Assembly (NCBI RefSeq): GCF_003334765.1
Contig: NZ_QOWT01000009.1
Source: Escherichia coli
Lineage (GTDB): Bacteria > Pseudomonadota > Gammaproteobacteria > Enterobacterales > Enterobacteriaceae
Direction: 5' to 3' (one strand)
Length of the DNA stretch: 64,000 nucleotides
Positions within the stretch are counted from its first letter, which is position 1. The number at the start of each line of letters is the position of its first letter. This document shows positions 55,923 to 56,175 of the stretch, one piece after another. The translations under genes and the position numbers were made by a program. The notes below the pieces were generated by a model, which was not told where the DNA came from, did not search any database, and saw only the letters and a program-made list of their open reading frames with translations.

Positions 55923-56072
55923 GTTCGTGTCTCCTGAAAAAAATCGTTCTGAATAAGTGTAAACGCGCGATTGTACCATTACCAATAGCGCTTTTACTAT
56001 GTTGTGACCTCGGTTCCGGGAAACAAACCTGGCCAGACATTGTTACACAACACTCCGGGTAATGCATTCCAA

Positions 56073-56092
56073 TACTGTATATTCATTCAGGT
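56073..56092. promoter_or_regulatory. LexA (SOS) box in the divergent ssb-uvrA promoter region
   Basis: tactgtatattcattcaggt fits CTGT-N8-ACAG-type SOS box (CTG-N10-CAG) about 85 bp upstream of uvrA ATG. Confidence 0.8.
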
Positions 56093-56175
56093 CAATTTGT
56101 GTCATAATTAACCGTTTGTGATCGCCGGTAGCACCATGCCACCGGGCAAAAAAGCGTTTAATCCGGGAAAGGTGA

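Follow-up and report, generated by a model that had tools for sequence, protein, structure and literature searches.

Organization of the ssb–uvrA locus

The genes ssb and uvrA lie next to each other and are divergently oriented in the window, by which we mean the whole 64-kb stretch of DNA that was analyzed. The ATG of ssb is located on the minus strand at position 55922, where the plus strand reads cat, and the ATG of uvrA is located on the plus strand at position 56176. As the sequence-only reading had proposed, the two genes are separated by 253 bp, and in MG1655 the same distance separates uvrA (b4058) from ssb (b4059). Over 10,001 bases, positions 52047..62047 of the window match the reverse complement of E. 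coli K-12 MG1655 positions 4268000-4278000 without a single mismatch. K-12 coordinates are obtained as 4330047 minus the window coordinate, which places the SOS box of the intergenic region (Table 1) at 4273955-4273974.

The 253-bp region was found in all of the complete E. coli genomes (5426/5426), at an identity of at least 99% in 5281 records. In this genome collection, the region has a plasmid annotation at four places, and two copies occur in at least one genome. These cases could reflect an assembly or replicon-labelling oddity, or a rare duplication.

Table 1. Features of the ssb–uvrA region in window coordinates; promoter elements are predictions.
Feature	Position	Strand	Sequence or elements	Basis
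ssb CDS, 178 aa	55386..55922	-		MG1655 b4059, 4274125-4274661, by coordinate mapping
ssb/uvrA intergenic region, 253 bp	55923..56175	between divergent genes		from the start codons
Candidate proximal LexA-independent ssb promoter	55970..55978	-	extended -10 TGGTACAAT	permissive scan, 9.5 bits
Candidate middle ssb promoter	56039..56047	-	extended -10 TGTAACAAT	permissive scan, 6.0 bits
Candidate distal LexA-sensitive ssb promoter	56066..56095	-	-35 TTGACC 56095-56090, 18-nt spacer, -10 TGGAAT 56071-56066	permissive scan, 8.7 bits
Putative alternative distal ssb promoter, overlapping the box		-	ATGACA 56105-56100, 18 nt, TATACA 56081-56076	permissive scan
LexA operator (SOS box)	56073..56092	.	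TACTGTATATTCATTCAGGT	sequence, matrix score, conservation, literature
Putative uvrA -35 region, inside the LexA box	56080..56087	+	TATTCA or TTCATT, weak match	scan geometry; PMC9505508
Predicted uvrA extended -10	56100..56108	+	TGtCATAAT (hexamer 56103-56108; TG 56100-56101)	permissive sigma-70 scan
uvrA CDS, 940 aa	56176..58998	+		ORF list; identical to MG1655 b4058

A single LexA box of intermediate strength

A gammaproteobacterial SOS box has a constant CTG-N10-CAG core set in an imperfect palindrome of 20 bp that is similar to TACTG(TA)5CAGTA. The 20-mer at 56073..56092 reads tactgtatattcattcaggt and has this arrangement: CTG occupies 56075-56077, CAG occupies 56088-56090, and 10 nt separate them. 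The sequence-only reading had pointed to a 20-mer here that fits the SOS consensus, and its sequence, core, and coordinates were all confirmed.

To score the site, we built a symmetric LexA matrix from 24 other E. coli SOS boxes and left the uvrA/ssb site out. The 24 boxes are from the lists of Lewis 1994 and Fernandez de Henestrosa 2000, and each was matched exactly, in 16 MG1655 regions, just upstream of the named gene. They belong to recA, lexA (2), sulA, umuDC, uvrB, dinG, uvrD, recN (3), dinB, polB, dinI, yebG, ruvAB, sbmC, dinD, ftsK, ydjM (2), cho, tisB, and dinJ, and their consensus is TACTGTATATATATACAGTA. With this matrix, the uvrA/ssb box scored 18.3-19.4 bits and had a Berg-von Hippel heterology index (HI) of 7.9-8.2, both inside the range of the established boxes. 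In leave-one-out scoring, 11-13 of the 24 verified boxes scored higher, which places it at about the 12th to 14th position among 25. The weight-matrix check suggested by the sequence-only reading thus gave a mid-rank score, not one that is low relative to known SOS boxes. Published HI values for the same box are 6.98 (PMC9505508) and 6.2 (PMC11228462), which also fall well inside the span of functional boxes; they differ from ours because the reference site sets differ.

Furthermore, in a matrix scan of the 64-kb window, the uvrA/ssb box was the best match at 19.43 bits, with a lead of 7 bits over the next. Under an iid model, 19.43 bits or more would be reached with a probability of 1.6e-7 at each position, which amounts to about 0.01 such sites per 64 kb. 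The score was reached in 1 of 200 windows simulated under a Markov-1 model, for which the mean maximum was 11.5 bits. The second-best match in the window lies at 42328..42347 (TATTGTTTTTCACGACAGTA, 12.2 bits), and the third at 33196..33215 (GGCTGTTTTTTTATCCATTC, 11.5 bits). Both are at chance level for 64 kb and are not regarded as operators. In the 253-bp gap itself, the scan found no second box, and the runner-up 20-mer, at only 5.1 bits, overlaps the box; the description of the box as single therefore holds.

The two halves of the box are unequal. The ssb-proximal half-site, TACTGTATAT, agrees with the consensus at all 10 positions and reaches the maximum possible score of 15.5 bits, whereas the uvrA-proximal half-site, TCATTCAGGT, is degenerate and scores 3.3 bits. 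Such a pairing is consistent with an operator of intermediate strength and a rather high basal expression. Simple pattern searches do not recover such a site. A search of the window for the perfect palindrome TACTGTATATATATACAGTA with up to 3 mismatches gave zero matches because the real site differs from it at 5 positions, and mismatch counting is thus the wrong test. Similarly, CTGT-N8-ACAG matched the window at two unrelated places in coding regions, as often as chance predicts, but not at the box, whose right half reads TCAG.

Promoters on both sides of the box

A strict sigma-70 and terminator consensus scan of 55800-56300 detected no promoter and no terminator, and the ROSE start-site supplement holds no entries for K-12 4273900-4274199. 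Promoter geometry was obtained from a permissive weighted sigma-70 scan, and the hexamers and starts given here are predictions backed by conservation. On the uvrA side, the box ends 10 nt 5' of a nearly invariant extended -10 and, in this geometry, spans the -35 region. Overlap of the uvrA -35 by the box is also described in PMC9505508. Transcription of uvrA is predicted to start near 56115, which would place the box at about -42 to -23.

Two further segments on this side were considered. Just 3' of the uvrA -10, around the predicted start, lies the stretch 56109..56119 (TAACCGTTTGT), which belongs neither to the box nor to the -10 hexamer but is highly conserved in Enterobacterales, with a near-invariant CCGTTT. 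It may represent a discriminator or initial transcribed sequence. An inverted repeat in the uvrA leader at 56124-56147 was dropped, as its fold was no stabler than that of shuffled sequences (z = 0.06) and it is poorly conserved.

On the ssb side, three promoters were reportedly described by Brandsma et al. in 1985, and the three ssb candidates of the permissive scan fit the published count, with assignments that are predicted. According to PMC9505508, ssb has three promoters, and the most distal alone is controlled by LexA. In the candidate distal promoter TTGACC/TGGAAT, the box takes up the whole spacer and extends into the -35. The attcca motif of this candidate is kept mainly in core Enterobacteriaceae. 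The proximal candidate hexamer lies within a conserved block (0.85). This block, 55956..55978 (AGTGTAAACGCGCGATTGTACCA), is located 35-55 nt upstream of the ssb ATG and holds TGGTACAAT on the minus strand; this is probably where ssb has its main constitutive promoter.

Conservation of the box across Enterobacterales

A degenerate pattern that covers nine and a half codons from the start of uvrA was run against species-representative genomes and gave 120 loci. At 75 of these loci, ssb is directly upstream and divergent, and all 75 are Enterobacterales by name or by sequence. The box is kept in every one of them (75/75), with scores of 13.7-22.3 bits and a median of 18.8 bits. The box lies a median of 83 nt from the uvrA ATG (range 55-175) and a median of 146 nt from the ssb ATG (range 114-362). 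Moreover, the spacing between the end of the box and a CATAAT-type hexamer is nearly constant: it is 10 nt at 50 loci, 12 nt at 10, and 11 nt at 1, for a total of 61 of 75.

The 75 unique intergenic sequences were aligned with MAFFT, and identity was measured to E. coli. In this alignment, no other 20-mer of the gap is as conserved as the box (mean identity 0.90), whose CTG and CAG are each at least 95% identical. The next conserved block after the box, at 56097-56116 (0.85), contains TGTGTCATAAT, and the uvrA -10 hexamer CATAAT reaches 0.98. In some lineages, among them Enterobacter, Lelliottia, and Phytobacter, the weak half reads AACAG instead of TTCAG, and the box scores 22.1 bits. These variants, together with the range of scores, indicate that variation in the box stays compatible with LexA and sometimes moves toward the LexA consensus.

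Three contigs among the loci carry taxon labels that do not seem to fit their sequences. On NZ_JAUFQN010000013.1, a 9467-bp contig assigned to Flavobacterium paronense (L122), the box and its flanks are identical to the E. coli window over the approximately 80 nt compared; the whole contig looks like contamination. A contig of a "Hyphomicrobiales" MAG (L046) carries a Sodalis/Acerihabitans-like version of the region, and one of a "Proteobacteria" MAG (L085) carries an Enterobacter-like version; both are probably mis-binned.

Regulation of uvrA and ssb

LexA was reportedly footprinted at uvrA by Sancar et al. in 1982, and LexA ChIP-chip is said to have been performed by Wade et al. in 2005. The exact 20-mer is carried in a published reporter plasmid that uses the uvrA promoter. 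In the literature, PMC9505508 describes a single SOS box that is common to ssb and uvrA and can control both genes; the SOS review PMC6590174 lists the genes, and box sequences are absent from it. In RNA-seq after AZT treatment, uvrA was induced 3.9-fold and was 4.4-fold lexA-dependent, versus 1.5-fold and 1.0-fold for ssb (PMC11228462).

The RNA-seq values for ssb raise the possibility that the box is an operator of uvrA only, located upstream of ssb through adjacency and without a physiologically meaningful effect on ssb. Earlier protein and array measurements point in the same direction. According to PMC9505508, four immunoassay studies of ssb (radioimmunoassay included) gave no induction and two gave a slow, very moderate rise, while ssb was not induced in three microarray studies, in one of which uvrA rose about 3.5-fold. 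The arrangement of the region is also consistent with such an operator, as the spacing to the uvrA -10 is fixed while the distance to the ssb ATG varies over 114-362 nt, conservation of the candidate distal ssb hexamers is only moderate (0.57-0.58), and six Vibrio loci keep the box at uvrA with an ssb that has none. However, RT-qPCR showed induction of ssb by UV and gamma rays that depends on LexA cleavage, as well as overexpression of ssb in an SOS-constitutive mutant (PMC9505508). In Salmonella treated with nalidixic acid, ssb rose 9.6-fold alongside an 11-fold rise of uvrA (PMC8072944), and a fusion study by Brandsma 1983, as cited in PMC9505508, found ssb to be SOS-regulated. We therefore consider it unlikely that the box serves uvrA alone. 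The proposal of the sequence-only reading that the box is shared stands in that the literature gives one box able to control both genes; the sharing is asymmetric, with uvrA about 4-fold LexA-dependent and the effect on ssb weak or disputed.

A second possibility is that the conserved block serves chiefly as the binding site of a different regulator, such as ArcA, and that its likeness to a LexA box is incidental. An ArcA binding site is drawn in the ssb/uvrA intergenic region according to the Figure 1 legend of PMC9505508. The pattern of conservation makes this very improbable: over the 75 genomes, it is the LexA-critical CTG and CAG that are at least 95% identical, the other substitutions stay within SOS-box tolerance (13.7-22.3 bits), and some lineages improve the LexA half-site from TTCAG to AACAG (22.1 bits). 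Finally, a chance CTG-N10-CAG in AT-rich intergenic DNA that binds nothing has a negligible probability, for although the box departs from the perfect palindrome at 5 positions and escapes both pattern searches, this reading is effectively refuted by a score expected about 0.01 times per 64 kb with a 7-bit lead over the next match, by conservation at 75/75 Enterobacterales loci while the flanks diverge, and by published LexA-dependent expression (PMC9505508, PMC11228462).

Collectively, the sequence, score, uniqueness, conservation, and -10 spacing computed here, taken with LexA-dependent expression and three ssb promoters from the literature and with predicted hexamers and starts, indicate that the 20-mer at 56073..56092 is almost certainly the classical LexA operator in the divergent uvrA–ssb control region of E. 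coli K-12. Repression by LexA and its relief through RecA*-stimulated LexA autocleavage are established SOS biology. On this basis, in the undamaged cell, a LexA dimer bound to CTG-N10-CAG would keep RNA polymerase off the uvrA promoter, and the same bound dimer would occupy the spacer and the -35 of the most distal promoter for leftward ssb transcription. Once DNA is damaged, RecA* formed on single-stranded DNA would stimulate LexA self-cleavage, the box would empty, and both promoters would be relieved. Expression of uvrA would then increase about 4-fold. For ssb, only the output of the distal promoter would be gained; because this adds to two LexA-independent proximal promoters, total ssb would rise little. 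Blocking of both strands by one repressor is well supported on the uvrA side, and on the ssb side it would involve two overlapping candidate promoters that are weakly conserved outside core Enterobacteriaceae.

The element is thus most aptly regarded as an operator of uvrA through which, where the genes are adjacent, one minor ssb promoter is controlled as well: the box keeps a nearly constant distance to the uvrA -10 but not to ssb, and in Vibrio it stays with uvrA. That the box tracks the uvrA promoter and not ssb helps explain four decades of disagreement on the SOS inducibility of ssb. The site is also useful as a positive control, being a textbook operator that was found from raw sequence and behaves as a real operator.

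Comparison with known systems

The SOS box of uvrA/ssb in E. coli K-12 has the same sequence at the same locus, without any difference, and Fernandez de Henestrosa et al. are said to have listed it in 2000. The box described here is therefore already known and ordinary, and it is the same site as the K-12 box rather than one that merely resembles it. In Salmonella enterica, one box (HI 6.99) likewise serves both divergent genes, and both are induced by nalidixic acid (PMC8072944). The distances to the annotated start codons differ in the Salmonella table, where they are 80 and 24 bp (PMC8072944).

More distant relatives differ. The uvrA box is present in all Vibrio and Enterobacterales loci, in contrast to Alteromonadales, Shewanella, and Idiomarina, in which no LexA box was found in the 400 nt upstream of uvrA; the best matches there reached at most 6 bits with the E. 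coli matrix, from which the LexA motif of these organisms may differ. The loci without a box were L023, L039, L040, L042, L045, L052, L056, L061, L065, L068, L074, L075, L088, L110, and L120. In Alteromonadales, Shewanella, and Idiomarina, uvrA may have left the SOS regulon, or these groups may use a different LexA motif.

In Vibrio, the uvrA box resembles that of E. coli in that a CTG-N10-CAG lies approximately 65 nt upstream of the uvrA ATG, beside the promoter. It differs in being stronger (21-25 bits, TACTGTTTTTTTATCCAGTA) and in often being preceded by a terminator-like hairpin. Moreover, the Vibrio box is not shared, as ssb is divergent but approximately 2 kb from uvrA. At the six Vibrio loci with both genes visible, the uvrA box scores 21.7-25.3 bits, and no ssb box was found within 350 nt upstream of ssb, where the best match reached 8.7 bits. 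We tentatively suggest, as one possible history, that the box was ancestrally dedicated to uvrA and that ssb joined it secondarily in Enterobacterales, as the approximately 1.5-2 kb that separate the genes in Vibrio and Alteromonadales were lost or never inserted. If so, the weak and disputed membership of ssb in the SOS regulon would be a by-product of adjacency that was later put to use through a lineage-specific distal promoter.
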